From assembly GCF_013167455.1 (NCBI RefSeq), contig NZ_CP038328.1: a DNA stretch of 64,000 nt; one strand, given 5' to 3'. Below are positions 216 through 26,310 of the stretch, one piece after another. The position numbers were made by a program, and so were the translations under genes. How positions within the stretch are numbered: the first letter of the stretch is position 1; every line of letters begins with the position of its first letter. The notes beneath the pieces are model-generated. The model was given only the letters and a program-made list of their open reading frames with translations. It ran no database searches and was not told the origin of the DNA. The stretch comes from Escherichia coli O157:H7 (GTDB lineage Bacteria > Pseudomonadota > Gammaproteobacteria > Enterobacterales > Enterobacteriaceae).

Positions 216-220
216 ACGTG

Positions 221-6075: not shown

Positions 6076-6113
6076 CAAAAACCGGCTGAAAGGCACGCTA
6101 TCAGCCGGTTTTA
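6076..6113. terminator. bidirectional rho-independent terminator between convergent sdiA and yecF
   Basis: aaaaaccggctga...tcagccggtttt: perfect stem flanked by A-run and T-run. Confidence 0.65.
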
Positions 6114-6115
6114 TA

Positions 6116-6340: not shown

Positions 6341-6798
6341 TTATTTTCCTCGTCATGTTGCAATGAAAATTTGCGGTGAAAAATGTTAAGGCGGCGGAGT
6401 ATACCATAAGCTTTGCTAAAAATAGCAGTGGTTGTTTTTTGAGCGTGCCGTCAACGGTGCTATTAAATGCGTTAATATAATGACCAATAAATATTTTTAT
6501 CATGAATGTTTTTTGCCCGTATTGTTCGGGTTAATTAATGTTACATATTCAGCGGGCTGATTTTCATTTTTGCTGAATAAAGGTAATTTTTGTCACATTT
6601 CGTCGCAGGGCTTACTGTGAAACGATCCGGTAAGCCGTTGGTGACGGGCGTGACCATAACTGTGGACAATCGAATTGACAAAAACGAGAGAAAAATCGAA
6701 TACCCACCATTTTTAACGTTTCAAAGTTGCAATAAAAACCGCTAATATACGAATGACTAACTATCAGTAGCGTTATCCCTATTTCTGGAGATATTCCT

Positions 6799-7455
6799 TT
6801 GATCAACGTTCTACTTGTTGATGACCACGAACTGGTGCGCGCAGGGATACGACGCATTCTGGAAGATATAAAGGGTATAAAAGTCGTCGGTGAGGCATCG
6901 TGCGGTGAAGACGCCGTTAAGTGGTGCCGGGCAAATGCCGTTGACGTGGTGCTAATGGACATGAGTATGCCGGGCATTGGCGGTCTTGAGGCGACGCGTA
7001 AAATCGCGCGTTCCACAGCTGATGTAAAAATCATCATGCTTACCGTCCATACAGAAAACCCTTTACCAGCGAAAGTCATGCAGGCCGGTGCTGCGGGCTA
7101 CCTCAGCAAAGGCGCGGCTCCGCAGGAAGTCGTGAGTGCGATCCGTTCTGTCTATTCTGGGCAGCGTTACATTGCTTCTGACATCGCTCAACAAATGGCA
7201 TTAAGCCAGATCGAACCAGAAAAAACAGAAAGCCCATTTGCCAGTTTGTCTGAACGTGAATTGCAGATTATGCTGATGATCACGAAGGGCCAGAAGGTCA
7301 ATGAGATCTCAGAACAGCTCAATCTCAGTCCGAAAACGGTGAACAGCTACCGCTATCGTATGTTCAGTAAACTAAACATTCATGGCGATGTTGAGCTGAC
7401 TCACCTGGCAATTCGCCATGGTCTGTGTAATGCGGAGACATTATCAAGTCAGTGA
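6799..7455 (+). CDS. uvrY: two-component response regulator UvrY (NarL/FixJ family; BarA partner)
   Basis: TTG start; receiver domain (VDDH...D) plus LuxR-type HTH; 218 aa. Confidence 0.9.
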
Positions 7456-9284: not shown

Positions 9285-9340
9285 TGTCTCTGTAGCAACA
9301 TAGGGGTAATCTTACTGACAACAGATAGTTACCCGTCATT

Positions 9341-9889
9341 ATGCAATTTAATATCCCTACGTTGCTTACACTGTTCCGTGTCATCCTTATCCCATTCTTT
9401 GTATTGGTCTTTTATCTGCCTGTCACTTGGTCGCCGTTTGCCGCCGCGCTCATTTTCTGCGTCGCGGCGGTGACTGACTGGTTCGATGGTTTTCTGGCAC
9501 GCCGCTGGAACCAGAGTACCCGGTTTGGTGCTTTCCTTGACCCTGTAGCAGATAAAGTTCTCGTGGCTATCGCCATGGTGCTGGTAACCGAGCATTACCA
9601 CAGCTGGTGGGTGACCTTACCGGCGGCAACGATGATCGCCCGTGAAATTATTATTTCTGCGCTACGCGAATGGATGGCGGAGTTGGGTAAACGCAGTAGC
9701 GTGGCTGTCTCCTGGATTGGGAAAGTGAAAACCACTGCCCAGATGGTGGCGTTGGCATGGCTGCTGTGGCGTCCGAACATTTGGGTTGAGTACGCCGGTA
9801 TTGCACTTTTCTTTGTGGCTGCGGTACTGACTCTGTGGTCAATGTTGCAATATTTGAGCGCTGCGCGTGCAGATTTGCTTGATCAGTGA
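9341..9889 (+). CDS. pgsA: CDP-diacylglycerol--glycerol-3-phosphate 3-phosphatidyltransferase
   Basis: 182-aa membrane protein with the CDP-alcohol phosphatidyltransferase motif (DGFLAR...G...DPVADK). Confidence 0.9.
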
Positions 9890-9939
9890 TCGTTTCGGCG
9901 CAATTTTCAGCAAACGATCAAAAGTGGTGAAAAATATCG

Positions 9940-9967
9940 TTGACTCATCGCGCCAGGTAAGTAGAAT
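9940..9967 (+). promoter_or_regulatory. sigma-70 promoter of the glyW-cysT-leuZ tRNA operon (-35 TTGACT, 16-bp spacer, -10 TAGAAT)
   Basis: Near-consensus hexamers with a GC-rich discriminator, ~70 bp upstream of glyW. Confidence 0.6.
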
Positions 9968-10040
9968 GCAACGCATCGAACGGCGGCACTGATTGCCAGA
10001 CGATAATAAAATCAAGTGATTAACTGATTGCTTGATGAAT

Positions 10041-10116
<76 letters not shown>

Positions 10117-10169
10117 GTTTAAAAGACATCGGCGTCAGCGGATGTCTGGCTGAAAGGCCTGAAGAATTT

Positions 10170-10243
10170 GGCGCGTTAACAAAGCGGTTATGTAGCGGAT
10201 TGCAAATCCGTCTAGTCCGGTTCGACTCCGGAACGCGCCTCCA
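10170..10243 (+). tRNA. cysT: tRNA-Cys (anticodon GCA)
   Basis: 74 nt ggcgcgttaacaaagcggttatgtagcggattGCAaatccg...ggttcgactccggaacgcgcctcca. Confidence 0.95.
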
Positions 10244-10255
10244 CTTTCTTCCCGA

Positions 10256-10342
10256 GCCCGGATGGTGGAATCGGTAGACACAAGGGATTTAAAATCCCTC
10301 GGCGTTCGCGCTGTGCGGGTTCAAGTCCCGCTCCGGGTACCA
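10256..10342 (+). tRNA. leuZ: tRNA-Leu (anticodon TAA), intact copy; prophage integration target
   Basis: 87 nt gcccggatggtggaatcggtagacacaagggattTAAaatccc...ggttcaagtcccgctccgggtacca, with long variable arm. Confidence 0.95.
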
Positions 10343-10408
10343 TGGGAAAGCTAAGAATAAAATCAAAGCAATAAGCAGTGTCGTGAAACCACCTTCGGGT
10401 GGTTTTTT
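10288..10408 (+). repeat. attL: left copy of the ~121 bp direct repeat (3' ~55 nt of leuZ plus its terminator)
   Basis: Nearly identical to 31693-31814 (one indel, one mismatch seen by eye). Confidence 0.85.
10385..10408 (+). terminator. rho-independent terminator of the tRNA operon
   Basis: gaaaccaccttcgggtggtttttt hairpin plus T-run. Confidence 0.7.
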
Positions 10409-10880
10409 CGTATTTGTATTTTGTGCAATGGCGGTAGAGTGGCGATGGTGTGGCGATATGCAGAAACAATGGTAGTGCACGTGCTGTTTAAACTCTAAGG
10501 ATGAAGCAGAATTCTTCTGCAGCTCCTCCGTATTTCGCATAGTGAACCAGGACCTCTGTTAAACAAAAATTTTTCTGGGATTTTTCCACTCGACTTTATT
10601 TTTCCTCCTGCAATCCACCAACAGGTACCTGCGCTAATCTATCTTTTTAATCTGACAACATCTTGGGAAAAGGCAAATTCGTCAGATTTACTGTTTTTCT
10701 GCTGCCTCGAATGCCGATGTCTGAAGCACTGATAAGAGTTCTATCTCTTTGATATAGATCTTTTTTTTGATGAATTGCACGACATATTATCGTTATGACA
10801 CCTTCTTGTTAAAGGTATTGTGCTCCTCATCTCGATTTTATGATGTGGGCTATGATTGGTTAGTAATTGAGTGTATCGGT

Positions 10881-11162
10881 ATGCGATGTGGTTTATTAAT
10901 GGCAATCTGCCTTTGTTTAGTATCTTTTAGTGGATATGCAGCAACAGGAAAGTCTGATGCTCAGATCAAAAAAGAAATAATTAAAGAATCCATTGAATCT
11001 TATCCAGGCAATTGTGCGTGTCCTTATAATCATGCAAGGAATGGTAGTAGATGTGGTGGACGCAGTGCATATAGCCGTAATGGAGGGTATGACGTGGTAT
11101 GTTATGAGGGTGATGTTACCGATGAAATGATCCGGCAATGGAAGCAGGAGAATGCTGAGTAA
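10881..11162 (+). CDS. small secreted cysteine-rich protein of unknown function (prophage cargo)
   Basis: ORF 10767-11162; likely start at the ATG at 10881 (MRCGLLMAICLCLVSFSGYA / ATGKSD... signal peptide); 4 Cys in the mature part; AT-rich. Confidence 0.5.
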   Translation: MRCGLLMAICLCLVSFSGYAATGKSDAQIKKEIIKESIESYPGNCACPYNHARNGSRCGGRSAYSRNGGYDVVCYEGDVTDEMIRQWKQENAE

Positions 11163-11261
11163 TCTCTTTTAACAGGTTTGTTGTGCGAGCATTATGTGCC
11201 GTTAACGGTTCACATCCCGAAAATCTGCGCTTCTGGCTGAAAGCCTGTCCGGTGGTCCTTC

Positions 11262-12398
11262 GTGAGCGATTTCATCAACAATGTAAGTGTAGATTCAATT
11301 GGTCAACGCAACAGTTATGTGAAAACATGGGGTTGCGGAGGTTTGGAACTATGGAAGAACGGAACAGGCTTCAGTGAAATAGCGAATATCCTGGGTTCAA
11401 AACCCGGAACGATCTTCACTATGTTAAGGGATACTGGCGGCATAAAACCCCATGAGCGTAAGCGGGCTGTAGCTCACCTGACACTGTCTGAGCGCGAGGA
11501 GATACGAGCTGGTTTGTCAGCCAAAATGAGCATTCGTGCGATAGCTACTGCGCTGAATCGCAGTCCTTCGACGATCTCACGTGAAGTTCAGCGTAATCGG
11601 GGCAGACGCTATTACAAAGCTGTTGATGCTAATAACCGAGCCAACAGAATGGCGAAAAGGCCAAAACCGTGCTTACTGGATCAAAATTTACCATTGCGAA
11701 AGCTTGTTCTGGAAAAGCTGGAGATGAAATGGTCTCCAGAGCAAATATCAGGATGGTTAAGGCGAACAAAACCACGTCAAAAAACGCTGCGAATATCACC
11801 TGAGACAATTTATAAAACGCTGTACTTTCGTAGCCGTGAAGCGCTACACCACCTGAATATACAGCATCTGCGACGGTCGCATAGCCTTCGCCATGGCAGG
11901 CGTCATACCCGCAAAGGCGAAAGAGGTACGATTAACATAGTGAACGGAACACCAATTCACGAACGTTCCCGAAATATCGATAACAGACGCTCTCTAGGGC
12001 ATTGGGAGGGCGATTTAGTCTCAGGTACAAAAAACTCTCATATAGCCACACTTGTAGACCGAAAATCACGTTATACGATCATCCTCAGACTCAGGGGCAA
12101 AGATTCTGTCTCAGTAAATCAGGCTCTTACCGACAAATTCCTGAGTTTACCGTCAGAACTCAGAAAATCACTGACATGGGACAGAGGAATGGAACTGGCC
12201 AGACATCTAGAATTTACTGTCAGCACCGGCGTTAAAGTTTACTTCTGCGATCCTCAGAGTCCTTGGCAGCGGGGAACAAATGAGAACACAAATGGGCTAA
12301 TTCGGCAGTACTTTCCTAAAAAGACATGTCTTGCCCAATATACTCAACATGAACTAGATGAACCGCCCCGGGTTTCCTGGAGAGTGTTTTATCTGTGA
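11262..12398 (+). pseudogene. IS30 transposase, damaged: canonical N-terminus missing, C-terminus replaced by read-through into IS629
   Basis: ORF matches IS30 Tnp from ELWKNGTGFSEIANILG... to ...LAQYTQHELD; the native start (MRRTFTAEEKASVF) is absent and the last ~12 codons read into the IS629 inverted repeat. Confidence 0.7.
11288..12357 (+). mobile_element. IS30 remnant (left IR TGTAGATTCAATTGGTCAACGCAACAG present; 3' end cut off by the IS629-like insertion)
   Basis: IS30 terminal repeat and transposase recognised from memory; the right end with its IR is missing. Confidence 0.75.
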
Positions 12399-12400
12399 AC

Positions 12401-13291
12401 TCAGGCTGCCAGATCATCGTTTCCGATGGAAGCATAATAAGCTTTTTCTGCTTCTGCCGGAGGAGTATGGCCCAGCCTTCCCAGCAATCGTCGATTGTTA
12501 TACCAGTCCACCCACGTTAGTGTGGCCAGTTCCACTTCTGCACGGTTTTTCCAGCTCTTACGGTGTATTACCTCCGCTTTGTAAAGACCATTGATGCTCT
12601 CAGCCATCGCGTTGTCATACGAGTCGCCTGTACTCCCTGTTGATGCCAGTAATCCGGCTTCTTTTAGTCGCTCCGTATAGGCCAGTGACACATACTGAGA
12701 GCCTTTATCGCTGTGATGGATGGTGCCAGACGGACGACGGGCCCACAACGCCTGCTCCAGCGCATCCAGCACGAATGTCGTTTCCATAGACGATGAGACC
12801 CGCCACCCCACGATGTATCCGGCAAACACATCAATGATAAACGCCACATAGACGAAGCCCTGCCATGTGCTGACGTAAGTAAAATCAGCCACCCACAGCT
12901 GGTCAGGTCGTTCTGCCACGAACTGACGGTTTACGCGGTCGCCTGCGGCAACGGCTTTCCGGCTGATGGTCGTACGGACCTTTTTACCCCGGAGAACACC
13001 GGCAAGTCCCATAACCGCCATGAGACGTGCCACTGTACATCTGGCCACCCTGATTCCTTCCCGTAACAACTGACGCCAGACTTTACGCACACCGTACACC
13101 TGATGATTTTCATCGTATACGCGCTGTATCTCTCTCTTCAGCCAGTCGTCGTGCTGCGCACGGGCACTGCGTTTATCCGGATGATGTCGCTGTTGCTGAC
13201 AATGGTAATACGTTGACGGGGCAATATGCAGTTCGCTGCATACCGGTCCGACCCCGTACTGCTCACGCAGCTTATCCAGCAGTGGCATCAT
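12401..13291 (-). CDS. IS3-family transposase OrfB (DDE integrase domain)
   Basis: 296 aa, [16 protein letters not shown]...; rve-type catalytic domain recognised. Confidence 0.85.
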
Positions 13292-13614
13292 TTTTTCCAG
13301 AGGCGGTCGAACTCCGCCTTCGCAAAATAAGCGGAAGCCTGGCGAAGGATATCGTTACTGCGGCGCAGTTCACGATTTTCACGTTCCAGCTCTTTCAGAC
13401 GCTGACGTTCAGCGCTGGTGAGCCCACCATCACCGCCCCCGGTATCCCGCTCATGCTGGCGAACCCAGACACGCAGAGTCTCCGGCGTACAGCCAATCTT
13501 TGGGGCAATGGAACAAATTGCCGCCCACTGTGAGTCATATTCATCCTGACTTTCCAGAACCATACGAATCGCCCGCTGACGGACTTCGGGGGAAAAACGA
13601 GTATTTTTAGTCAT
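13288..13614 (-). CDS. IS3-family transposase OrfA (HTH / leucine zipper)
   Basis: 108 aa, [22 protein letters not shown]...; overlaps orfB as expected for a -1 frameshift fusion. Confidence 0.85.
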
Positions 13615-13668
13615 CCTGTTTACCTCTTTCTCAGGGAGTTTAGTCTCCAGGATTTCCGGGGCGGTTCA

Positions 13669-14354
13669 ACACGATGGCTGAGGCGATTACCTACCGCCAG
13701 AAATTCAACGAACGTGAGGTGATGCTCTTATGGCCTGACTTCATCGCCTACAACCTGAAAAGTGGCAAAAACGAAACGTTCCCCGCGCCTGCTTATGCGT
13801 GCGGCCTTCGTGCGTACATTGACCATGAGCAGGGCTGGCACAAATCGCTGTCCAACGTTCCGGTTAAAAATGTGCTTGGGATGTCGAGGCATGTGTTCTG
13901 GTCGTTGCAGGCCGAAGACAGTGATGCCAACAGCCTCAACAACAAAGAAATCACGACCATTATTCGTCGCAACGGGTTCCGCTTCTGGGGCAACCGCACA
14001 CCGGAAACGAACGCCTACATCTTTGAGGTGTATACCCGAACCGCACAGGTGCTGGCTGATTCAATTGCGGAAGCGCAGTTTGAAACCATCGACAGTCCAC
14101 TGACACCTGCGAACGTGAAGGATGTTATCAGTGCCATCAGGGCAAAACTGGATTCACTGGTTACTGCCGGGAAACTGATTGGCGCGGAGTGCTGGTATGA
14201 CATCGAGGATAACAGCACCACGAATTTACGTCAGGGGCGTGTGCGTATTCGCTACAAATATACGCCCGTTCCTCCGCTGGAAGACATGGAGCTTTACCAG
14301 TCGTTTACTGATGAATTCTTTGGTCCCGCATTTGCGGTGCTGGGAGGTGCCTGA
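13669..14354 (+). pseudogene. P2 FI-like contractile tail sheath, C-terminal fragment (5' end cut off by IS629 copy 1)
   Basis: 226 codons continuing straight from the IS junction; resembles the sheath C-terminus; a full sheath is ~390 aa. Confidence 0.7.
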
Positions 14355-14866
14355 TGGCTGTACCAAAACATCTTCGCTTTTTTACGCTGTTTGTGGATGG
14401 TGAAAACGAAGTGGGTAAGGTGACGTCCGTCACCCTGCCTAAACTGACGCGCAAAACCGACAGCTACCGGGGTGGTGGCATGATGGGTGCGGTAAGTATT
14501 GACCTCGGCCTGGACGACTCCGCGCTTGATGCGAGCTTTGTCATGGGGGGCGCAGTTCGTGAGCTGTTCCTGAAGTATGGCGGCACGATTGACGGCACGC
14601 TACTGCGTTTTGCGGGGGAATACTACACCGATGATGAAAGCGACCTGTATGAAGTCGAAATGCGCGGACGTGTGACGGAAATTGATATGGGGGAAGCCAA
14701 ACAGGGCGAAGCCACATCACACACTTACGCCATTAAAAACACCTACTACAAGCTGAGTGTTAACGATCGCCCGTTGTGGGAGATTGACCTGCTGAACTTC
14801 ATTTACCGGAAGGACGGCAAGGACATTGTGCCCGATCGCATCCGTTCCGCGCTTGGGCTTGGCTGA
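14354..14866 (+). CDS. P2 FII-like tail tube protein
   Basis: 170 aa; TLPKLTRK...YRGGGMMGA...DLGLDD motif pattern of P2 FII. Confidence 0.8.
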   Translation: MAVPKHLRFFTLFVDGENEVGKVTSVTLPKLTRKTDSYRGGGMMGAVSIDLGLDDSALDASFVMGGAVRELFLKYGGTIDGTLLRFAGEYYTDDESDLYEVEMRGRVTEIDMGEAKQGEATSHTYAIKNTYYKLSVNDRPLWEIDLLNFIYRKDGKDIVPDRIRSALGLG

Positions 14867-14920
14867 TAAGTAATATGCAGGCGGCGCAGTGCGTCGCCTC
14901 TGACTGAAAGGAGTTTCCTG

Positions 14921-15450
14921 ATGAAAGAGACGAAAAACATCGATACCGAAAACACGGTAGTTACTGACACTGTGAAAGAAACCAGTGAGCGTGGTGTAAA
15001 ACTTACCCAACCAATTGAGCGAGGCGGCGAAAAAATCACGTATGTGGAGATCACCGGGGCTATTGAGCAGGCTGGATCTCTGCGAGATTTGTCGCTGTCT
15101 GATGTGCTGAATCTGAAAGCGGAATCCATGTTTACGCTGCTGTCACGCGTGACATCACCGCGACTGGATGAAGTGACGATCAAAAAAATGGCATCCCGTG
15201 ACTTTATTCAGTTATGTGTGGTTGCCGTAAATTTTTTGAGCGGTGCGGACTCTGGCGGGAAGAACGAACAGGCGACGGAAGCCTGATCACGGTTGTGTGC
15301 TTTGAGCACATAGAAGACTTTGTGGCAGATATTGCCGTTATTTTTAACTGGTCGCCCGCCGAAATCTTCATGATGACGCCCGGCGAAGTGGTTAGCTGGC
15401 GTGAGCGGGCGGCACTTCGCAGCGGGAATGCAGACAATGAAGACTCTTGA
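14921..15450 (+). CDS. tail assembly chaperone GpE and its -1 frameshift product E+E' (slippery T TTT TTG at 15232-15238)
   Basis: E frame ends at 15286; an overlapping -1 frame ORF (15214-15450) begins at the TTTTTTG heptamer, the conserved P2 E/E' recoding arrangement just upstream of the tape measure gene. Confidence 0.65.
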
Positions 15451-17527
15451 TATCCGGGTCGCTTTCAGCGCCGTTGACAGGCTGACCCGACCTGCCGAAA
15501 ACGCACGCCGCCTGATGGGGCAGTTTGGTGACTCCATCCAGCGAACGCAGGGGGCGATCAAAAATCTCGAGCGTCAGGCGCGATCATTTGAGCGCGCCCG
15601 CGACGCTGTCAGTAAAGCGGATGCTGGCATCGTGAAAGCACGACGCCAGCTTAACGCCCTTAATCAGTTACAACGCACGGGTACAGTGCTCAGCGAAAAA
15701 CAACAAAAGCTGATGCAGCAGTTAAGCACCCGGCTTGAACGCCTGAATGAATCGCGCACACGGGAAATTCAGAAAATGAGGGAACTTGGCGGAGAGCTGA
15801 AACGCCACGGCATTTCCCTGACAGGCAGCGATAACACCATTCAGCAGGCCATCAGACGCACCGAACAATACAACAACCAGCTTGAACGCGAACGGCAGGC
15901 GCTTGCGCGTGTAACGCAGGCGCGTGAGCGGTATTCGCACGCGCAGGAAACCGCGGGAAAACTGAAAACAGGTGGTGCGCTGGCAATTGGTGCGGCAGCG
16001 GCGGGCGGCTATGCTGCCGGGCGTTTTTTGCAGCCTGCGATCGGGTTCGGCAAAGAGATGTCCCGCGTTCAGGCACTGACGCGAATCGACAAAAACAGCC
16101 CGCAGTTTAAGGCGCTGCGTGAGCAGGCGTTAAAACTTGCTGAAACACAGTTTACTGCGAGTGATGCCGCCAGTGGGCAGAGCTTTCTGGCAATGGCTGG
16201 TTTTACTCCGCAGGCCATTCAGGCCGCATTGCCCGGTGTTCTTAATATGGCGCTGGCAGGTGGCGTCGAACTCGGCGAGACGGCTGATATAGGCTCCAAT
16301 ATCCTCACACAGTTCAACCTGACAGCCGATCAAATGGACCGGGTGGGCGATACGCTGACAGCAGCATTTACCCGGACCAATACTGATTTACGCGCGCTGG
16401 GCGAAACCATGAAGTATACCGGTCCGGTTGCCGCAAAACTTGGTATCAGTCTTGAAGAAGCGGCGGCCATGGCCGGGATGCTTGCCAATAATGGTCTTCG
16501 CGGAAGCGATGCTGGCACGGCCATGCGCGCAAGTCTGTCCCGCCTTGCATCACCGCCAAAAGCTGCGGCTGATGCACTGAAAGAGCTGGGGGTGTCAGTT
16601 GCTGACGCCAGAGGCAAAATGCGCCCGATGGAGGATGTGCTGCTTGATCTCTATAAGGCGACACAAAAATACGGACAGGTGGACCAGGTCTCCTTCTTCA
16701 AGGACATCGCCGGAGAAGAGGCGTTCGTTGGTTTGCAGACGCTTGTTGCGGCGGCTGGTTCAGGAGAGCTGCAAAAACTGACCAGAGAATTGCAGGGGGC
16801 AAGGGGAGAGGCCGATCGCGTCGCAAAAGTAATGGCTGATAATCTTGATGGGGACCTGAAAAATCTCGACAGCGCATGGGAAGGTCTTCGTATTCGCATC
16901 AGTGATCTGGTTGACGGTCCGCTGCGTTCTGTCACGCAGTGGCTCACGCGGGTGCTTGAAAAAATCACCTCGCTGGCGCAGGCCCATCCGGTACTGACGC
17001 GCCAGCTACTGATAGCAGGCGGTGCGTTGCTGGCAATGACTGCAACGATTGGCTCGTTGTCGCTGGTTATTGGGGTGCTTTACGGGAAGCTGGCCACCCT
17101 GCGTCTTGGTTTTGACATTCTTACCCGGTCAATGAATGTCGTCAGGGTGTTACCTGCGCTATGGGGAATGGTGACGGGTTCCGTTTCTTTACTGGGAGGC
17201 GTTATCGGGGCGTTGTTCAGTCCGGTTGGTCTTATCGTGGCTGCGCTTGCCGGAGCTGCCGTTCTTATCTGGAAATACTGGGATCCTATCAGGGCTTTCT
17301 TTGCCGGGGTGTTCAGCGGGATTATGGAAAGGCTGACCCCGTTGCGCGACACCTTTGAACGGTTTGGCCCTGTTTTTGACGTAATCGGAAGCGGTTCAGC
17401 CAGGTGTTTAACTGGTTTAAATCGCTGCTGTCACCGATGGAGTCCAGCAAGGAAACGCTGGATAAATGTACCAGTGCTGGCGAGGTATTCGGTAACGTTC
17501 TTGGTGGTGCGTTACAGCTTGTTCTGA
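15401..17527 (+). CDS. tail tape measure protein (GpT-like), N-terminal reading frame
   Basis: 708 codons, coiled-coil rich with hydrophobic segments; position after E/E'. Frame changes near 17380-17527. Confidence 0.75.
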   Translation: MSGRHFAAGMQTMKTLDIRVAFSAVDRLTRPAENARRLMGQFGDSIQRTQGAIKNLERQARSFERARDAVSKADAGIVKARRQLNALNQLQRTGTVLSEKQQKLMQQLSTRLERLNESRTREIQKMRELGGELKRHGISLTGSDNTIQQAIRRTEQYNNQLERERQALARVTQARERYSHAQETAGKLKTGGALAIGAAAAGGYAAGRFLQPAIGFGKEMSRVQALTRIDKNSPQFKALREQALKLAETQFTASDAASGQSFLAMAGFTPQAIQAALPGVLNMALAGGVELGETADIGSNILTQFNLTADQMDRVGDTLTAAFTRTNTDLRALGETMKYTGPVAAKLGISLEEAAAMAGMLANNGLRGSDAGTAMRASLSRLASPPKAAADALKELGVSVADARGKMRPMEDVLLDLYKATQKYGQVDQVSFFKDIAGEEAFVGLQTLVAAAGSGELQKLTRELQGARGEADRVAKVMADNLDGDLKNLDSAWEGLRIRISDLVDGPLRSVTQWLTRVLEKITSLAQAHPVLTRQLLIAGGALLAMTATIGSLSLVIGVLYGKLATLRLGFDILTRSMNVVRVLPALWGMVTGSVSLLGGVIGALFSPVGLIVAALAGAAVLIWKYWDPIRAFFAGVFSGIMERLTPLRDTFERFGPVFDVIGSGSARCLTGLNRCCHRWSPARKRWINVPVLARYSVTFLVVRYSLF

Positions 17528-18240
17528 CGCCTGCAAAAATGTTGCTGGATACGCTGGCGTGGATACTTGAAAAACTCGGTGTGCTTCCGGATGAAGCGGA
17601 AAGGGCGCGCAAGAAAATCGAAGACGCACAACGTGCGGCCATTCTTCAGGACAAGGTTGCTCTGTTTCAGGGAGACATTGCGAAAATCAATCCGCCGAAG
17701 TCTGCGGGAAATAGCAATGGCACCGGAGATGATAAACCCAAAGACAACAAACCTCTCACAGACAGCAATACCGGCACGCTACGCAGACTCAGCAAAATTG
17801 CTGATAACACAGGTAAGCTGGTTGATGAGACAAAAAAACGCATTGGCCCCGGCGATATTGTCTTTAAGAACCTGCCCCGCGCACTTGCTGTTCGTGGGGA
17901 GTGGCAGGAGCGGAAGATTGCGCAGGTCAGTAAGCCTGCCCCCGCAATTAATATCACACCCGTGGTCCCGGCTCCGCTGCCTCCGGCGCTGGTCCCTGTT
18001 GTTGCGGCCAGCTCCCGCCCGGTGGTGGAGGCCATACGATCGCCAGTGGCATCAGTTCCTGCAACTTCCCGTAACCGGGAGCCTGTTGCCTCCGGATTTG
18101 GCGGTGAAATTCATGTTCATCTGCATAACGTTGTTACGCAGAATCCCCGCGAACTGGCGAAACTGGTCGGCGAAATGGTCAGGGCAGAAATGGAACGGCG
18201 CGCCCGTGCCAGGCGTGGCAGTTTTTACGATAAAGATTGA
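17404..18240 (+). CDS. tail tape measure protein, C-terminal segment in a different frame (apparent frameshift)
   Basis: 278 codons in the +2 frame relative to the upstream part; this frame opens after a stop at 17377-17379. Confidence 0.6.
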   Translation: MFNWFKSLLSPMESSKETLDKCTSAGEVFGNVLGGALQLVLTPAKMLLDTLAWILEKLGVLPDEAERARKKIEDAQRAAILQDKVALFQGDIAKINPPKSAGNSNGTGDDKPKDNKPLTDSNTGTLRRLSKIADNTGKLVDETKKRIGPGDIVFKNLPRALAVRGEWQERKIAQVSKPAPAINITPVVPAPLPPALVPVVAASSRPVVEAIRSPVASVPATSRNREPVASGFGGEIHVHLHNVVTQNPRELAKLVGEMVRAEMERRARARRGSFYDKD

Positions 18241-18246
18241 GGAGTC

Positions 18247-18741
18247 ATGGCCATGATGATGATCTACGGCATGTTTGTTTTTGAGCTGCGCACGTTGCCG
18301 CATCAGCAGTTACAGCAAAACAAAAGCTGGCGACATGTGAAAAATGAACGCGTTAACCGTTCAGCAAGCTGGCAGTATATCGGTGCAGGTGATGATCGCA
18401 TCGTTCTTTCTGGTGTTCTTTATCCTGAGATTACTGGTGGCGAAGTGTCGCTGTCGTTGTTGACCACGCAGGCATATACAGGACGTCCTTGGCCTTTGAT
18501 TGATGGCGTCGGGCAGATTTACGGCATGTATGTCCTGACCGGAACGAATACGACCCGCTCCGAGTTTGATCGCTACGGTAAGGCGAAAAAGATAGAATTT
18601 TCACTGACTCTTGAACGCTGTGATGAGGATTTGCGGGAGCGCCTGCAATCCTCATCGTTCAGCGATATGCTGTCCGGCTTCAAAGATAAGGTGACATCAT
18701 CCCTTAATAGCGCGGCCAGCTCAGTTAAGGGGCTGCTCTGA
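18247..18741 (+). CDS. P2 GpU-like tail protein
   Basis: 164 aa; MMMIYGMFVFELRTLPHQQLQ... resembles P2 U. Confidence 0.8.
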   Translation: MAMMMIYGMFVFELRTLPHQQLQQNKSWRHVKNERVNRSASWQYIGAGDDRIVLSGVLYPEITGGEVSLSLLTTQAYTGRPWPLIDGVGQIYGMYVLTGTNTTRSEFDRYGKAKKIEFSLTLERCDEDLRERLQSSSFSDMLSGFKDKVTSSLNSAASSVKGLL

Positions 18742-20046: not shown

Positions 20047-21104
20047 TGAACCGCCCCGGGAATCCTGGAGACTAAACTCCCTGAGAAAGAGGTAAACAGG
20101 ATGACTAAAAATACACGTTTTTCCCCCGAGGTCCGTCAACGGGCAGTCCGTATGGTTCTGGAAAGTCAGGGCGAATATGACTCACAATGGGCGGCAATTT
20201 GTTCCATTGCCCCAAAGATTGGCTGTACACCAGAGACTCTGCGTGTGTGGGTTCGTCAGCATGAGCGGGATACCGGGGGCGGTGATGGTGGACTCACCAC
20301 CGCTGAACGTCAGCGTCTGAAAGAGCTGGAACGTGAAAATCGTGAACTGCGCCGCAGTAACGATATCCTTCGCCAGGCTTCCGCTTATTTTGCGAAGGCG
20401 GAGTTCGACCGCCTCTGGAAAAAATAATGCCGCTGCTGGATAAGCTGCGTGAGCAGTACGGGGTCGGACCGGTATGCAGTGAACTGCATATTGCCCCGTC
20501 AACGGATTACCACTGTCAGCAACAGCGACATCATCCGGATAAACGCAGTGCCCGTGCGCAGCGCGATGACTGGCTGAAGAGAGAGATACAGCGCGTATAC
20601 GATGAAAATCATCAGGTGTACGGTGTGCGTAAAGTCTGGCGCCAGTTGTTACGCGAAGGTATCAGGGTGGCCAGATGTACAGTGGCGCGCCTCATGGCGG
20701 TTATGGGACTTGCCGGTGTTCTCCGGGGTAAAAAGGTCCGTACTACCGTCAGCCGGAAAGCCGTTTCCGCAGGCGACCGCGTAAACCGTCAGTTCGTGGC
20801 AGAACGTCCTGACCAGCTGTGGGTGGCTGATTTTACTTACGTCAGCACATGGCAGGGCTTCGTCTATGTGGCGTTCATCATTGATGTGTTTTCCGGATGT
20901 ATCGTGGGGTGGCGAGTCTCATCGTCTATGGAAACGACATTCGTGCTGGATGCACTGGAGCAGGCGTTGTGGGCCCGTCGGCCGTCCGGCACAGTCCATC
21001 ACAGTGATAAAGGTTCTCAGTATGTATCACTGGCCTATACGGAGCGACTAAAAGAAGCAAAACTGCTGGCATCAACAGGGAGTACAGGTGACTCGTATGA
21101 CAAT
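20047..21104 (+). mobile_element. IS3-family IS629-like element, copy 2, 3'-truncated (~1058 of ~1310 bp), inverted relative to copy 1
   Basis: Left IR TGAACCGCCCCGGGAATCCTGGAG at 20047; similarity to copy 1 stops after ...gactcgtatgacaa (~21104). Confidence 0.85.
20101..20427 (+). CDS. IS3-family transposase OrfA
   Basis: 108 aa, nearly identical to copy 1 OrfA (a few substitutions). Confidence 0.85.
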
Positions 21105-21116
21105 GTATTTTATTAG
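20427..21116 (+). pseudogene. IS3-family transposase OrfB, C-terminally truncated
   Basis: 229 codons versus 296 in copy 1; diverges after ...[11 protein letters not shown]. Confidence 0.8.
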
Positions 21117-21135: not shown

Positions 21136-21450
21136 TTATTCTGGGAATAAGGTCTGAATATTCTTTTTTATTTTATAAAAATTGCATTCAACTCCGCTAG
21201 GCTGATTAGCCTGGTATGTTTCCTTGATGCTAACGGTATTGAAGGGGAGGTTGTCCTCTGGCCATTCGGCCATCCAGTAGGCAAATGCTGGGTTGCGCTT
21301 TATGAGTGCTAGCCCAGCCAGAAAGGCCGCGCGTTGCGCGCGGCTGCGTTCGGAGGCTGGCAGGCTATCGAGGTAATTGCACGCCTCCTGTTCACTCTTG
21401 ACGGCGGCGGGCTTCAGATAGAAACTTATCCGTCTGGTTGGTGTCGTCAT
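21136..21450 (-). CDS. ParR/StbB-like centromere-binding adaptor of a type II partition system
   Basis: 104 aa; RRISFYLKP...LDSLPASERSRAQRAAFLAGLALIKRNP resembles plasmid R1 ParR (recalled from memory). Confidence 0.65.
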   Translation of the reverse strand: MTTPTRRISFYLKPAAVKSEQEACNYLDSLPASERSRAQRAAFLAGLALIKRNPAFAYWMAEWPEDNLPFNTVSIKETYQANQPSGVECNFYKIKKNIQTLFPE

Positions 21451-21454: not shown

Positions 21455-22414
21455 TTACTCCTTGTTCATTGCGTACAACCCATTAACCAGAGCAAACTGT
21501 GGCACCCCGTCCGCGATGAAAGTCGCATTAACTCCGCAGGCTTCGCGGATAGCGGTTGCCACAATCTCCGCCCCGCCACCGACAACCATCACCCGCCCGT
21601 AACCCGAAAAAACCGCCAGCGCGCGGATCACGCGTTGTTTCAGTGTTTCTTCCTTTTCACGAATAACCGCCATCAGGCTGGCGTAATGCGCGTCATTGTG
21701 GATGTGCTGGCGCAGCCAGGCTTCATCATGGCGATGTTCGATAATGGTATTGGCGATGTGGTGACTGGTGCGCATACCGTTAGTGGCCATCACCGACAGT
21801 ACGGCATCGGCCATCAGAGAAACGCCTACGTGTGGATCGCAAAACACCTGGCTGATACCTGCCAGTTGCCCCTGAACCTTTGCCACATCCAGCGTGGTTC
21901 CGCCCAAATCCACAATCAGCAGGGATTCAAACGGACTCATGTCAGCCAGTGCCTTAAAGCCAGCAGGAATGGATTCAGGCATAACCCGTACGTTACGGAT
22001 AGTGAATGCTTCGCCGTTCTGGTACTCCACCGGGCGCATGACGTTCGCTTTTTTGCGGTTGATGTTGGCCATGTCCGGCTGTGCGTTTGTATCGAAATAC
22101 TCGCTCAGTGGCAGGGTGACAACCACATCCACTTCCTGTGGTGTGATGCCTGATTTGACCAGCGCGTGATGAATGGCAATTACATTCACATCGCTGTACT
22201 GGTATTGCGTGTCGGTCGTCTGGACAAAGCGATCGCTGACCGGATCAAAACCATAGCGCACGCCATCAAGCATGTAGTTCGCGGGCTGCGTGCCACCGAA
22301 TGGCGCAGACCATTCCGACTTGAAGCTGTTCGGGCTGATGGCGTTGCGGCGTTCGCCGTTCTCAGTCCATGCCAGCTTGATGTTGGTGGAGCCGTCGTCG
22401 ATACAAATTTTCAT
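21455..22414 (-). CDS. ParM/StbA-like actin-family partition ATPase
   Basis: 319 aa; actin-fold motifs IDDGSTNIK (phosphate 1), LIVDLGGTTLD (phosphate 2), VMVVGGGA (adenosine). Confidence 0.75.
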   Translation of the reverse strand: MKICIDDGSTNIKLAWTENGERRNAISPNSFKSEWSAPFGGTQPANYMLDGVRYGFDPVSDRFVQTTDTQYQYSDVNVIAIHHALVKSGITPQEVDVVVTLPLSEYFDTNAQPDMANINRKKANVMRPVEYQNGEAFTIRNVRVMPESIPAGFKALADMSPFESLLIVDLGGTTLDVAKVQGQLAGISQVFCDPHVGVSLMADAVLSVMATNGMRTSHHIANTIIEHRHDEAWLRQHIHNDAHYASLMAVIREKEETLKQRVIRALAVFSGYGRVMVVGGGAEIVATAIREACGVNATFIADGVPQFALVNGLYAMNKE

Positions 22415-22450
22415 GTCGCTTTTCCTTATGTTGATTAATTAATCGGTTAC

Positions 22451-22560
22451 AGGATTTTTAAATCCCGCTTTTGCCTGTTTTGTGCGCGCTTCATATATCG
22501 CGGCGCGTTTTTTGCTCATTTACGGGATTTGTGAGTCCCGTTTCTGTCTGTTTTTTGTTT
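22451..22560. repeat. two copies of a ~35 bp repeat, each containing a GGATTT..AAATCC-type palindrome; candidate parC-like centromere or operator
   Basis: aggatttttaaatcccgcttttgcctgttttg (22451-22485) and cgggatttgtgagtcccgtttctgtctgttttttg (22525-22560), directly upstream of the parM-like gene. Confidence 0.4.
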
Positions 22561-25313
22561 CCACTGGTCAGGCCACCCCGCAGCAGGTCTGCTTTGCGGC
22601 TGGCGCGTTCAGTGGTTTCACTGATTCTCTGTGCGTGCTCTGCGTCGCGGATGGCGCGCAGCATGTCAGAAAGCACGGTAACGGGTGTTTTCATGGTGTT
22701 CTGGTCCTGCTGAAGTGTGGATGCCAGGCGTGCGGCGGCTTCAGGGTCTGATGCCCCCAGCTGTGCCAGATAGCTGGCGACCGGGTTATGGCGGATCTCC
22801 GTGCTGCTTACGCCATGATTACGGCTCAGGCGCTGCCAGAGCTGCGTGATTCGGCTGTCCGGGCGGGTATCCGGTTTGCGTACAATTTCAAATCCCTGCG
22901 GTGCAATGATGCTGCCGTCAACGTACAGACTGCCGCCCCGTAACAGGTGCTGCATCTGTTGTTCACCGATATGCAGGCCGAGAGATTCAGCAGACTCCCG
23001 CCATTCTTTAGCGAGTAATTCGTGGTTATCAGGCAAAGGCCGCTGCTGTTTGCGGCTCTGTGTCCAGCTCTGCATTTCATCACTGCTGTTTTTTGCCTGT
23101 TTGTCACGAAGCGAACGCATCAGCGCCCGGCGTTCGTGCCGTTTCAGTGAGCGCATCCATTCGTTCACGTCAACGCCGTCAGGAAGCTGCGGCCACGGTG
23201 CTGGCCGTTCTTCCGGCTGTTCTGTCCCGTTGTTGTCCGTTTCCTGTACACGGGGACAGTTATTGCCACGAGTCCAAGGGGCGGCAGGGCCGCCCTGAAG
23301 GTCAAAACCATTTTCGCGGGCGCTGTCTTCTACTCCCGGTTTACGTCTTACCAGCTTCCAGTTATCCGGGTGCGTGCACACACGGGAGGATTCCCCGATG
23401 AGTGGTGACCAGATCCCGTAAATCTGTACGCTCTGTTCGCCGTAATCGTTCAGCTCATCTGCGAGGTCGTAGGCGGTGCGAATCAGGTAGTCCTTGCGTG
23501 GAACAAGTACGCCTCCCTGTTTCTCAATGTAGGTGGTAAAACATCCGGCATCAGCGGCAGCAAGAACCGCATCCATTGCGTCATCCTTCAGCCGTTGCGG
23601 GCCTTCCGGGTTGCGTGCCATCTGGCTGGCAAGGCGACGCAGTTCACGCCACACCTGACGGGAGGGGATGCCAAAGAACTGGAACTGGCGGACCCGGTGA
23701 AGGCGCGCCCAGCCAATGGCGCGTTCCACGCTCTCGGTCATTGATTTTCCGGTTTCGTGGTCAACGCGTGGTTTGCCTGTTTTCGGGTCGATGCCATCCA
23801 CGGCGCGGCTGTCCAGGTTTTTTCCGATGTAGGTGGCGATGTAGCTGGTTGGCGTGCCTTTTGAGCCGTCGACATACTCCGCCTTAAAGCGCGGAGTAAT
23901 ATCATCGCCCAGCTCGTGACGATCTTCCTGAATGGCAATATCGCGGGTGTGGGACACAATGGTGTCGATTTCTTCCGGATGAGCAAAGACCATCATATGC
24001 CAGTGCACGGTGCCGTCATGGTGAGGCTCCACCGTGCGGATGCCATACCAGCGCAGGCCGTCGCGGTTCAGTTTCTTGCGGACCGCCGCAAAAAACGTGT
24101 TAACCAGGTAATCGCTGGAGTCGCGCATGGTGGCCCCGTTCCATTTGGGATTCGGATGACCGTTCTCTGTTGTAGCGTGGTATTTTGACGGGCAGGTGAC
24201 AGTCAGAAACACCGCTTTGTCGCCACGGGCTTCGGCCAGAAGTTCCAGCCCCTTCATGGTGGCCATCATTTCTGCCTTACGGTGAACCGGGTTACTTACT
24301 CCCGCGTAATACACTGTCTCGAGATCAATCGTGAACCCGTCTTCGTTTTCCAGCATGAAACTTTTCAGGAAATCGCGTGTTTTCTCGCGCTGTGCGCGAA
24401 ACTCGCTTAACGCGTCCTGGCTCAGATAGGGCGATGTTTTTCTGGAAACCAGACAGGCGGCGCGGAGTTGTTCTTCTCTCCACTCGCAACGTAACAGCCA
24501 CAGTTTGCGTTTCCACCATTCCGCACAGGTCAGGCGAAGGATTGCGCCCGGCAGCAGCTCCGTGTCCGGTTCGTTCCTCCGGTCTTTGTCTGTTGTCAGT
24601 GCGTCATAATGTGGAGGCATGGCGTGCAGGTGTAACGCCATGCGGGCCAGCATCTGATACGCCTTCAGCGTTACATCCATGGTCAGTTCGCCATCGGTCG
24701 CGCCAAAGCCATCGCAGAGTTTTTCGAAGGTGCTGCTGAACATCGCCGCCGTCATGGTGGCCAGCGTCTGTATCTGGTGTTTGTTGAGCTGCGGCAGGTA
24801 AAGCAAATCGTCCAGGCGTTCGCGTCCGGCAAGGGAGCGATAACCCTGTGTCAGCCAGCGGTGATCGGTGCGCTCCAGACGTTCGAATATTTTGCGCAGG
24901 TTTCCGCGCGCGTAGCGTTCAGCCTGCCAGCTCTTTTTGCCTTTCTGACGATCGGCTTCCTGTTTTTTGCGCAGGAAGGAGAGGTGGCGAATAAGCGGAT
25001 CGCGCAGATAGGACGGCAGCAGGCGCAGCGAGGCCATGGCTTCATCCACCGCACCGCGTGCCTGTTTTCTGGCGTCTCCTGCCAGTGTGATGGTTTTGTC
25101 CTGTTTTTCCTGTGCGTCCAGGCTTTTATTAATCAGGTTGCCCAGCGGCGTTGCGGAGAACGCCGCATCAGCCATTTCCTGGCGGCGCTCGTTCTCTACC
25201 CGGTAGGCATCCAGCCAGGAGGAAAGCGCGGATTCAGGAGCGGGGATCCCCGTTCCTTCACGCCCCACTGCGTGGCGCGGTTGTTGCCAGTCCCTGATGT
25301 ACTCTGCCGTCAT
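22491..25313 (-). CDS. rolling-circle replication initiator endonuclease, P2 GpA-like
   Basis: 940 aa; HxH-type motif (GTVHWHMMVFAHP) and YIATYIGKN tyrosine region typical of the GpA family. Confidence 0.8.
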   Translation of the reverse strand: MTAEYIRDWQQPRHAVGREGTGIPAPESALSSWLDAYRVENERRQEMADAAFSATPLGNLINKSLDAQEKQDKTITLAGDARKQARGAVDEAMASLRLLPSYLRDPLIRHLSFLRKKQEADRQKGKKSWQAERYARGNLRKIFERLERTDHRWLTQGYRSLAGRERLDDLLYLPQLNKHQIQTLATMTAAMFSSTFEKLCDGFGATDGELTMDVTLKAYQMLARMALHLHAMPPHYDALTTDKDRRNEPDTELLPGAILRLTCAEWWKRKLWLLRCEWREEQLRAACLVSRKTSPYLSQDALSEFRAQREKTRDFLKSFMLENEDGFTIDLETVYYAGVSNPVHRKAEMMATMKGLELLAEARGDKAVFLTVTCPSKYHATTENGHPNPKWNGATMRDSSDYLVNTFFAAVRKKLNRDGLRWYGIRTVEPHHDGTVHWHMMVFAHPEEIDTIVSHTRDIAIQEDRHELGDDITPRFKAEYVDGSKGTPTSYIATYIGKNLDSRAVDGIDPKTGKPRVDHETGKSMTESVERAIGWARLHRVRQFQFFGIPSRQVWRELRRLASQMARNPEGPQRLKDDAMDAVLAAADAGCFTTYIEKQGGVLVPRKDYLIRTAYDLADELNDYGEQSVQIYGIWSPLIGESSRVCTHPDNWKLVRRKPGVEDSARENGFDLQGGPAAPWTRGNNCPRVQETDNNGTEQPEERPAPWPQLPDGVDVNEWMRSLKRHERRALMRSLRDKQAKNSSDEMQSWTQSRKQQRPLPDNHELLAKEWRESAESLGLHIGEQQMQHLLRGGSLYVDGSIIAPQGFEIVRKPDTRPDSRITQLWQRLSRNHGVSSTEIRHNPVASYLAQLGASDPEAAARLASTLQQDQNTMKTPVTVLSDMLRAIRDAEHAQRISETTERASRKADLLRGGLTSGNKKQTETGLTNPVNEQKTRRDI

Positions 25314-25319
25314 AGTGAT

Positions 25320-25685
25320 TTACTTCGTCATGCCATTCAGGGTGTCGCGGCAGGCTGTAGCCAGCCGCTGAATTTCCAGCACGGTGTCTTCTGTGTCGGC
25401 ATGGCGATGTGTGATGCGGATGCTGTCGGCAATCACATCGACGATTGCAGAGGATGGGCGCTGGTAAATGCCAATAACGGACGGGGTGCCACCTTCAATG
25501 CGGTAAAGCCTGTAATTTCCCTCGTGGCTGTCAATCATGTAGCGACCATCAATAACAATCTTTCCGTCAGCGAGCTGCGGTACAGGCAGGGATTTCAGGT
25601 ACATGTCATAACGATCACGCACGCGAGCGGCAAGATCACGTTCTGTGTTGAGCAGGTATTCAAGAAAGTCGTTGGCGAGAATCAT
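25320..25685 (-). CDS. hypothetical prophage early protein
   Basis: 121-aa ORF ending 6 nt before the gpA start; same strand. Confidence 0.5.
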   Translation of the reverse strand: MILANDFLEYLLNTERDLAARVRDRYDMYLKSLPVPQLADGKIVIDGRYMIDSHEGNYRLYRIEGGTPSVIGIYQRPSSAIVDVIADSIRITHRHADTEDTVLEIQRLATACRDTLNGMTK

Positions 25686-25757
25686 TGCGGCAATCCTCTT
25701 GTTACAGATGTGCGAAGGCCTCCCGCCGCAAGGTGCAGGAAAGGCCCGGAACAGGAA

Positions 25758-25988
25758 TTAATGGAGTTTGTTTTGCTGCTGGATGAGCTGTTGAAACTCG
25801 TGCAGATCATCCGCCAGATAGCTGAAAACAGAGGCGGAATAAATGTTTGATAGTGCGTGGCTGCGCTCATGCAGCATATTGATGTGCATGATTTGCGCGA
25901 CGCGTGATGCGCGGGAAAGTCTGCGGTTGATTTCAGTCTGGATGTGACGACGCTCCGCGATAGCGCGGTGCTGTTTGCGGTCTGCCAT
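25758..25988 (-). CDS. hypothetical prophage early protein
   Basis: 76-aa ORF in the early operon. Confidence 0.4.
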   Translation of the reverse strand: MADRKQHRAIAERRHIQTEINRRLSRASRVAQIMHINMLHERSHALSNIYSASVFSYLADDLHEFQQLIQQQNKLH

Positions 25989-26310
25989 GGTGTGGCCTCT
26001 TTGCTCGGTGATAGAAATAACTCACCATCCAGAGTTGAGAATCTCGGGGTGGCGAGACGTACAGGGTTCTCAACACCGGAGAGCAAAGAATCCGGCCCGA
26101 CCGAAGTCGGCCCCGTACGCCCCGCCATAATTCTGACGCGAAAAAGACGTGGCAATACAGTACGCACAAAAAAACCGCTAGCGCGGTTATGCGCTTTGCT
26201 CTGTATCGGGTTGAGAATCCCGGCACCCGTTTTATGAGGTGCAGCGGAAATGTAACCTGACCGATTGCGGCATGGCAAGCGGTTTTTTTGTGTGTGCATG
26301 TTCTGGTTTC

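Follow-up and report, generated by a model that had tools for sequence, protein, structure and literature searches.

A GpA-like replication initiator gene in Escherichia coli O157:H7, gene A, is considerably longer than its counterpart in phage P2, and the question is whether the additional length is genuine protein or read-through into the neighboring DNA. The window analyzed here is a stretch of 64,000 nucleotides, in which gene A forms a real open reading frame of 940 codons plus a stop (22491-25313, minus strand), running from ATG to TGA. The P2 A protein, put at about 760 aa in the original prediction, was measured at 761 aa (L003:1354-3639). The assignment as a GpA-like initiator of 940 codons was confirmed by the ORF list, Pfam and PHROG. 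The Pfam profile Phage_GPA (PF05840) matched residues 179-503 with E=2.4e-131 (438 bits against a cut-off of 31.4) and was covered over positions 1-321 of 321, and PHROG 91, "nicking at origin of replication," spanned residues 3-940. The RefSeq entry for the protein (WP_000123463.1) is named "replication endonuclease," and the replication protein of Xuanwuvirus P884B11 is 98% identical to it across all 940 residues. The gene belongs to a P88-like (Xuanwuvirus), P2-related prophage and encodes its GpA-type rolling-circle initiator.

The gene A product is already known as an ordinary, correctly annotated part of a very common P2-like (P88-type) prophage. Of 5426 complete E. coli genomes, 1298 contain the junction between gene A and parM, and the same or nearly the same full-length A ORFs are present in the isolated phages P88, P884B11 and PhiR44_2, as well as others. 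Escherichia phage P88 (Xuanwuvirus, Peduoviridae) has the same neighbors, with a 121-aa ORF upstream and parM and parR downstream, and nothing of substance differs. The prophage copy in the window adjoins yecA/tyrP, and an IS3-family remnant lies right behind parR.

The HxH and catalytic tyrosines, expected near residues ~430-500, were located at residues 437-439, 491 and 495. The HUH-type metal-binding motif H437-W-H439 (23997-24005, minus strand) falls on three invariant columns, and the active-site tyrosine pair Y491-x3-Y495 (YIATY; 23829-23843, minus strand) on two; H437, H439, Y491 and Y495 are unchanged throughout a 19-sequence alignment that includes P2 A. The motif-C tyrosines of P2 A, described previously (PMC3986222), align with Y491 and Y495, and P2 A, the studied prototype of the family, has the same HxH and Y-x3-Y motifs. 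A full-length AF2 model gave a core with pLDDT 82-95 across most of residues 90-500. Foldseek with this model returned only weak matches, to the origin-binding domain of AAV2 Rep and to Helitron transposase (E 0.08-0.3, probability 0.7-0.9), and a sequence search of the PDB gave no meaningful match to the 940-aa protein. By analogy with P2 A, the protein would act as a HUH/two-tyrosine nickase that cuts one strand at an origin within its own coding sequence. It would bind the 5' end covalently via Y491/Y495 and then start rolling-circle replication, acting mainly in cis.

The origin is predicted to sit inside the initiator's own gene, at codons ~662-691 (23241-23330, minus strand), based on synonymous-site conservation and homology to the P2 ori region. 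Nowhere else in the gene do E. coli and Hafnia agree at 18/18 third codon positions (gene mean, 8.5/18), and the stretch contains 54 nt identical to Hafnia and 33 nt identical to SopEPhi. Read directly, the sequence shows CCTTGGACTCGTGGCAATAAC after a hairpin, GGCGGC-cct-GCCGCC (23280-23294). In P2, the aligned sequence reads GCGCCTCGGAGTCCTGTCAATAAC. The 20-mer of the P2 nick site, reportedly described by Liu & Haggard-Ljungquist in 1994, matched P2 exactly, and its position was checked there. The P2 ori is located within gene A (PMC3986222). The P2 origin sequence sits at the homologous place in the gene. Whole modules downstream of the ori have been swapped between initiators that are just 46-49% identical (P0113, P0114).

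The gene A product exceeds P2 A by 179 aa. BLASTP aligned residues 77-744 with P2 A residues 42-687 at 31% identity, and the excess divides into 35 aa at the N-terminus, 22 aa internally and 122 aa past the last aligned block. Counted from the tyrosine motif, 138 of the 179 aa lie on the C-terminal side and 41 aa on the N-terminal side, so the proposal that the extra length is C-terminal holds for about three-quarters of it and fails for the remainder. Missing from P2 A are a 55-aa N-terminal insertion, an insertion of the 8 aa DPKTGKPR, residues ~835-865 (the distal half of the C-terminal domain), the helix at 866-911 and the cargo-derived tail.

The N-terminal difference of 35 aa is the balance of a loss of 20 and a gain of 55, with W9 of the longer protein pairing with W29 of P2 A. 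The N-terminal W-x2-P-R-x-A motif is kept in other GpA proteins in the alignment, and because of this conservation the called start codon is supported. Residues ~20-76 (25086-25256, minus strand) have no counterpart in P2 A in the alignments and are predicted to be helical, with helices at 29-85 (pLDDT ~57-60). This segment is allelic among P88-like phages, with two N-terminal allele types in the alignment, and it carries the highest divergence of the gene (dN 0.42-0.49). A 55-aa helical insertion close to the N-terminus would thus be one reason for the length.

At the other end, a family-wide C-terminal domain occupies residues ~764-865 (22719-23024, minus strand). It is common to many distant GpA proteins and fragments, among them P0141, P0144, P0146 and P0154. 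Its predicted layout is helix-helix-three strands-helix plus two helices; residues 764-813 reached pLDDT ~90 in the C-terminal model, and dN/dS of the domain is 0.10-0.25. P2 A carries a short version of the C-terminal motif "G(I/L)...L.RG..(L/V)..DG," and the full domain, which P2 A has just in shortened form, would be a second reason for the length. The P88-lineage extension follows at residues 866-911 (22581-22718, minus strand). The model predicts a long alpha-helix at 877-913 (pLDDT 75-88), the Hafnia orthologue (62% identity overall) keeps 866-911 with an in-frame 4-codon indel, and dN/dS is 0.20-0.47 for residues 836-911 compared with 0.10-0.15 in the core. The extension is also retained beside at least four unrelated cargos besides parMR. 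Judged from these sequence comparisons, residues 866-911 are conserved as protein and are under purifying selection, and this lineage-specific long-helix segment of ~46 aa, selected whatever lies downstream, would be a third reason.

Foldseek of the C-terminal model against the PDB gave no match better than E=2. An exhaustive HMMER search with the A tail against 1.84 billion representatives yielded just 25 matches; the two to long repetitive proteins, P0135 and P0149, look spurious. Searching a word index for homologues of the 203-aa tail gave mainly fragments, three of which showed alternative tail endings. Homologue lengths run from 761 to 946 aa, with very large clusters at 940, 941 and 946 aa, and the clusters of 910-946-aa homologues comprise 707, 3,025 and 16,881 member sequences. 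At 910-946 aa, proteins sharing this conserved C-terminal region are therefore abundant, the outcome that the original prediction had named as its refutation, and, on this comparative reading, the long A is an ordinary family variant whose extra length is mostly real conserved protein. The A protein of Yersinia phage vB_YenM_42.18 (925 aa) is of similar length and has the same core and C-terminal domain, but its length comes from an N-terminus that differs and from 30 aa inserted internally, and it ends soon past the domain core. A Hafnia prophage A (913 aa), likewise similar in length, core and C-terminal domain, also has the 866-911 helix and parMR.

The remaining 29 codons behave differently. 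Between lineages that carry different cargo, the DNA ceases to be homologous right past the ...RKADLL codons, beyond which the tails consist of 4-33 codons of unrelated sequence. The cargos beside the break are parMR, an AAA+/S8 peptidase, a Dam methylase with AAA_15/21, three unknown reverse genes and one further context. The gpA-gpQ interval is a published hotspot with ~18,000 described loci, and a partition system is present in about a quarter of P2-like phages (PMC9122126). The left edge of this cargo hotspot would sit inside the ORF just past codon 911, as a fourth reason for the length, and because of this position the last 29 codons would be whatever the cargo DNA encodes until a stop. 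The tail (codons 912-940 plus stop; 22491-22580, minus strand) is delimited by the DNA homology break, a frame change and low pLDDT (~50 in both the C-terminal and full-length models), and it is predicted to be disordered. The DNA upstream of par is conserved in E. coli and Hafnia, yet it is read in different frames; at 74% identity between the two, it exceeds both the full A gene (68%) and A codons 836-911 (62%). Translation of Hafnia A ends within the first palindrome described below, 13 codons earlier than in E. coli. Tail dN/dS between E. coli and Salmonella is 0.41, from 10 differences alone, and there may be weak protein-level constraint on the last 29 codons within the par-bearing lineage. 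As a peptide, the tail is probably no more than a disordered appendage that serves no function.

The original prediction offered either a genuine extra domain or read-through across an ancestral stop into a parC-like region. The domain alternative stands for residues ~764-865 and the helix at 866-911, and read-through stands for 912-940 alone; as far as the compared loci indicate, only these last 29 codons are incidental read-through into par cassette DNA. The shared ancestral stop did not survive the comparison, as each cargo brings its own stop 4-33 codons past the junction.

The first cargo gene is parM (21455-22414, minus strand), encoding an actin-like segregation ATPase of 319 aa (Pfam StbA_N, E=1.8e-82; ParM C-terminal domain, E=3.5e-69; PHROG 691, "partition protein"). 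It is accompanied by a parR/stbB-like adaptor gene (21136-21450, minus strand; Plasmid_stab_B, PF10784, E=7.7e-29), whose 104-aa product is ~40% identical to R100 StbB across the N-terminal 63 aa. A type II (ParMRC, R1/R100-like) gene pair is thus present, with the ParM ATPase and the ParR/StbB adaptor in one operon; a consensus scan upstream of parM detected no sigma-70 promoter. The downstream cargo of P2 differs, with a 150-aa ORF directly after A and no par genes in the P2 record used. A repeat search identified two 38-nt copies around the end of gene A. Copy 1 (22520-22557), with the palindrome ACGGGAcTCACAAATCCCGT, lies inside A codons ~919-932 and is conserved in Hafnia, and copy 2 (22447-22484), with the palindrome CGGGATTTAAAAATCCTG, lies in the 76 bp that separate A from parM. 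All par-bearing loci carry the motif CGGGANTNNNNAATCC as a pair spaced 73 bp apart, and loci lacking par never have it; the two cassette-specific repeats are kept from E. coli to Hafnia. They are a candidate parC/ParR operator. With the parM-parR cassette as cargo, the A tail would cross the upstream half of its centromere/operator-like repeat region.

Like the candidate phage region, the parC of R1/R100 ParMRC (StbAB) sits immediately upstream of parM, extends over ~145-170 bp and has A/C-rich coding-strand repeats flanking a central segment, and the Shine-Dalgarno context CATAAGGA is common to the R1/R100 parC region and the phage par cassette. The phage region has two 38-nt units 73 bp apart, each with a palindrome of 6-8 bp arms, whereas R1/R100 parC has 2 x 5 iterons of 11 bp. 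The phage ParR is just ~40% identical to StbB in the DNA-binding part, and, unlike in R1/R100 parC, gene A ends within the repeat region and covers its upstream half.

Other explanations of the long ORF were considered. It is very improbable that the whole ~180-aa excess is read-through, with a stop near the P2-like end lost and translation continuing across DNA that was once non-coding or par-associated. This does describe the last 29 codons, but the homology of residues 764-865 to a domain of distant GpA proteins, the protein-level conservation of 866-911 (in-frame indel, dN/dS below 0.5, confident predicted helix) and the N-terminal or internal position, relative to the aligned core, of about a third of the excess (57/179 aa) argue against it, and the comparative data refute it as far as residue 911. 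That the ORF is an artefact of assembly or frameshifting, or else a pseudogene fusing two genes, is hardly conceivable given full-length ORFs in isolated phages and more than a thousand complete genomes and coding constraint along the whole length to codon 911; nothing was found in its favor, and the comparative evidence refutes it.

The arrangement with parMR allows two further readings. The P88-specific C-terminal helix and tail could be a functional adaptor tying the initiator to ParMR, for instance one that tethers replicated genomes to ParR/parC; A and parMR adjoin, the 3' end of A overlaps one candidate ParR site, and the A-par arrangement is very common. Such an adaptor is nevertheless quite improbable, as helix 866-911 is almost unaltered where the cargo is not par (L012, L013, L007, L009), and the par-linked tail is in different frames in E. 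coli and Hafnia and is predicted to be disordered. The 38-nt repeats could also be opposite-strand intrinsic terminators that shield A from antisense transcription out of the cargo region. A scan flagged 22522-22541 on the plus strand as a hairpin followed by a T-run, this copy folds at -10.2 kcal/mol (z=-3.65), and T-rich tracts follow both copies on the plus strand. Against this, the intergenic copy folds poorly on the plus strand (-4.8 kcal/mol, z=+0.28), no plus-strand gene converges on the repeat site, the repeats travel strictly with parMR, and they sit where the A/C-rich parC iterons of R100 sit upstream of parM, in the same Shine-Dalgarno context. Terminators are thus an unlikely explanation, ranked below ParR sites.

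The locus is best explained, with high confidence, as a P88-like gpA orthologue with modular extra length, cargo-derived last 29 codons and a par cassette downstream. A bolder proposal, which we regard as rather doubtful, is that the left recombination boundary of the hotspot lies inside A past codon 911, so that each cargo swap would rewrite the initiator C-terminus. In parMR carriers (roughly one quarter of E. coli P2-like prophages), the last ~23 codons would then double as half of the partition centromere/operator, and partition could become linked to initiator expression or cis-action, either by ParR binding at this site or by its translation. A further junction would lie at the conserved ori, with the nick site possibly serving as a recombination point.

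The discovery value is small, as gene A is a standard gene of a prophage that about one in four complete E. coli genomes carries. For the family, the spread in GpA length (761-946 aa) reflects modularity at the N- and C-terminal ends together with a tail that depends on the cargo, and not pseudogenization or fusion. Synonymous-site conservation alone can locate the origin in P2-like prophages, and the edge of the gpA-gpQ hotspot inside gene A can be pinned down to a few bases, which helps the automatic delimiting of cargo and defense loci.

Among GpA-family genes, gene A is one of the ordinary long forms, already known and annotated (RefSeq "replication endonuclease", WP_000123463.1). The ORF list confirmed the 940 codons of the original prediction, from ATG to TGA at 22491–25313 (-), starting 6 nt past the stop codon of an upstream 121-aa ORF. 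The called start is credible because the first residues contain W-x2-P-R-x-A, a motif common to other GpA proteins in alignments. Residues 179–503 match Pfam Phage_GPA (E=2.4e-131), and residues 3–940 match PHROG 91 ("nicking at origin of replication"; profile length 852). The HxH motif and catalytic tyrosine had been placed near residues ~430–500, and in the alignment H437-W-H439 and Y491/Y495 showed no variation across 19 homologues including P2 A. Foldseek searches gave only weak HUH-type matches for the core and no match for the C-terminal model. By analogy with P2 A, the protein would act by HUH/Y2 nicking at an intragenic origin, with cis-action.

The P2 record gives 761 aa for P2 A, in line with the ~760 of the original prediction, and the excess of gene A is 179 residues. 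BLASTP paired P2 A 42–687 with residues 77–744 at 31% identity, and W9 paired with P2 W29. The difference is distributed as -20 aa before the W motif, +55 aa in a helical insertion at residues ~20–76, +22 aa in the aligned core, and +122 aa after it. The extra length is therefore C-terminal, as proposed, for about two thirds of the excess, and the rest is N-terminal or in the core. The lengths of GpA homologues form a continuous series of 761–765 (Salmonella), 830, 835–841, 870–879, 910–916, and 925–946 aa, with clusters of 707 members at 940 aa, 3,025 at 941 aa, and 16,881 at 946 aa, as expected of an ordinary family variant. The segment after the conserved "NNC" motif varies from 79 to 257 aa, the longest among those sampled being that of gene A. 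The 925-aa GpA of a Yersinia phage gained its length for partly different reasons.

The C-terminal part was divided by alignment and structure prediction. Residues 688–763 are a linker with two helices, followed at ~764–865 by a region common to distant GpA proteins (AESLGL..QQ..LLRGG.L..DG ... W.R...NHGV.S.EIRHNPV..Y). It is carried by P0141, P0144, P0146, P0154, and other homologues, many of which end soon after, and P2 A has only its proximal part. The AlphaFold model gives this region helix-helix-three strands-helix with pLDDT ~90 and then two helices. Residues 866–911 occur only in the P88 lineage and in a relative from Hafnia that is 62% identical overall; an exhaustive search of 1.84 billion representatives with the 203-aa tail gave 25 hits, essentially none outside the P88/Hafnia lineage over residues 869–921. 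Judged from sequence and modeling, this segment is real coding sequence, since it keeps the motif VT.LSDML.A.RD.EH.Q, differs from the Hafnia gene by an in-frame 4-codon indel, shows dN/dS of 0.20–0.47 (residues 836–911) versus 0.10–0.15 for the core, and has one long predicted helix (residues 877–913, pLDDT 75–88).

The original prediction offered a genuine extra domain or read-through across an ancestral stop into a parC-like region. Genuine protein makes up the greater part of the extra residues, and reading into the parC-like region accounts for 29 codons only. From comparison of loci, residues 912–940 are cargo DNA: in relatives with other cargo, the A DNA is near-identical through the codons ...R-K-A-D-L-L and unrelated straight after. 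The cargo there is an AAA+ ATPase and S8 peptidase (L012, 7932–11302), three unknown reverse-strand genes (L013), a Dam-like methylase and an AAA_15/AAA_21 (SMC_N-like) protein (L007 and L008; L007:994–3554), or another context (L009). These ORFs stop 4, 10, 10, or 33 codons beyond ...RKADLL, with no ancestral stop common to them; the two that are complete genes (L013, L012) give products of 910 or 916 aa. In the E. coli genome search, matches of a class with 60% coverage (H98) also break off there. According to PMC9122126, the gpA-gpQ interval is a known hotspot, with 1,650 arrangements among 18,150 loci, and roughly one in four P2-like phages has a partition system at this site. The L012 ATPase/peptidase pair and the L007 methyltransferase/AAA_15/AAA_21 genes are likely anti-phage systems of this hotspot.

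Two 38-nt direct repeats lie 73 bp apart, one at 22520–22557 inside A codons ~919–932 and the other at 22447–22484 in the 76-bp A-parM gap, and each holds the palindrome CGGGAnTnnnnAATCC. The motif occurs exactly twice in the par region of the window and in each of five fetched par-bearing loci, and is absent from all fetched loci without par. Between the junction and the ATG of parM, the E. coli and Hafnia DNA is 74% identical, compared with 62% for A codons 836–911. A 1-nt indel shifts the Hafnia frame out of register and its TGA stop falls inside the first palindrome, so the DNA under the tail is conserved and the peptide is not. R100 parC resembles this region in position, extent, A/C-rich repeat strand, and Shine-Dalgarno context, although its iteron architecture differs; R100 StbB and the phage ParR share ~40% identity in their N-terminal part. 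We infer that the repeats are candidate ParR-binding sites. Their reading as antisense terminators is weaker, since just one of the two copies forms a good fold on the strand concerned. Between the putative binding sites (22486–22520, -), E. coli has a short direct repeat, CGCGC(C/A) x2, where the Hafnia locus, on inspection of the alignment by eye, has CGTGCA x2; it looks like a co-varying small repeat in the center of the candidate parC.

The origin of replication can be placed, from sequence conservation, at about 23241–23330, inside gene A. The P2 sequence GCGCCTCGGAGTCCTGTCAA, which we take to be the P2 A cleavage region, has exactly one exact match in P2, within gene A; it codes for AAPRSPVN, which aligns with AAPWTRGNNCP at residues 677–687. 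Synonymous divergence between the E. coli and Hafnia genes is saturated (dS about 1.4), and codons 662–691 are the sole stretch with 18/18 identical third positions (gene mean 8.5/18), including 54 consecutive identical nucleotides. A hairpin, GGCGGC-cct-GCCGCC, lies directly upstream, with GCGGC-atc-GCCGC in the corresponding position of P2, and the peptide encoded by the putative origin is predicted to be disordered. PMC3986222 states that the P2 ori, too, is located in gene A and that a Vibrio relative has a nearly identical one. Two metagenome/Logan proteins, P0113 and P0114, are mosaics, 87–97% identical to the SopEPhi/Fels-2 type before AAPWTRGNNCP (23253–23285) and 95–98% identical to the P88-type window protein past it. 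This switch at the motif indicates that the post-ori module moves as a unit, and these mosaics point to the nick region as a recombination junction.

Gene A is part of a P88-like (Xuanwuvirus, Peduoviridae) prophage inserted beside yecA/tyrP. Its product is 98% identical to the P884B11 initiator over the full length and shares 89% identity with the 946-aa protein of PhiR44_2. The 3' end of A with the A-parM gap has 95–98% matches in 14 phage records. Of 5426 complete E. coli genomes, 1298 contain the A-parM junction, which is 100% identical in O157:H7 strains. Downstream lie parM (21455–22414), a parR/stbB-like gene (21136–21450), and an IS3-family remnant (20101–21116, +) that is a 100% match to O157-plasmid transposase DNA labeled IS629 or IS3-family. 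The remnant carries a frameshift pseudoknot (Rfam ALIL, 20382–20498), and its orfB frame is just 229 aa, ending 20 bp from the parR stop; it appears truncated and to have taken the place of whatever lies after parR in intact P88-like phages. In L002, a locus of window DNA, the gene order (171–7045 versus 8137–18588) departs from that of an intact P2-like prophage: genes for tail sheath, tube, E, and U, for a serine O-acetyltransferase, and for tail-fiber assembly adjoin the IS, then parR-parM-A, with no portal, terminase, or capsid genes in between. The prophage looks rearranged or defective; the 438-kb record that contains it, though labeled a plasmid, bears the chromosomal genes yecA and tyrP.

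Upstream of A, Rfam matches above the gathering score were a C4 antisense RNA (26045–26132, -; 78.5 bits) and an isrK Hfq-binding RNA (26168–26242, -; 63 bits). A 76-aa "derepression protein" ORF (25758–25988) lies a short way downstream of them, and the arrangement resembles an RNA-controlled antirepressor module. Both RNA matches lie within a 205-aa ORF (25682–26299) called "hypothetical protein" in some phage records, which is probably spurious. A 357-aa ORF (24777–25850, +) antisense to the 5' third of A and the upstream gene received no support in any of the searches; it most likely reflects the opposite strand's codon composition.

The analysis adds modest new details: the boundary of the gpA-gpQ hotspot falls within the gene A ORF, the tail of A overlaps a candidate parC half-site, and the putative origin is a second mosaic junction.
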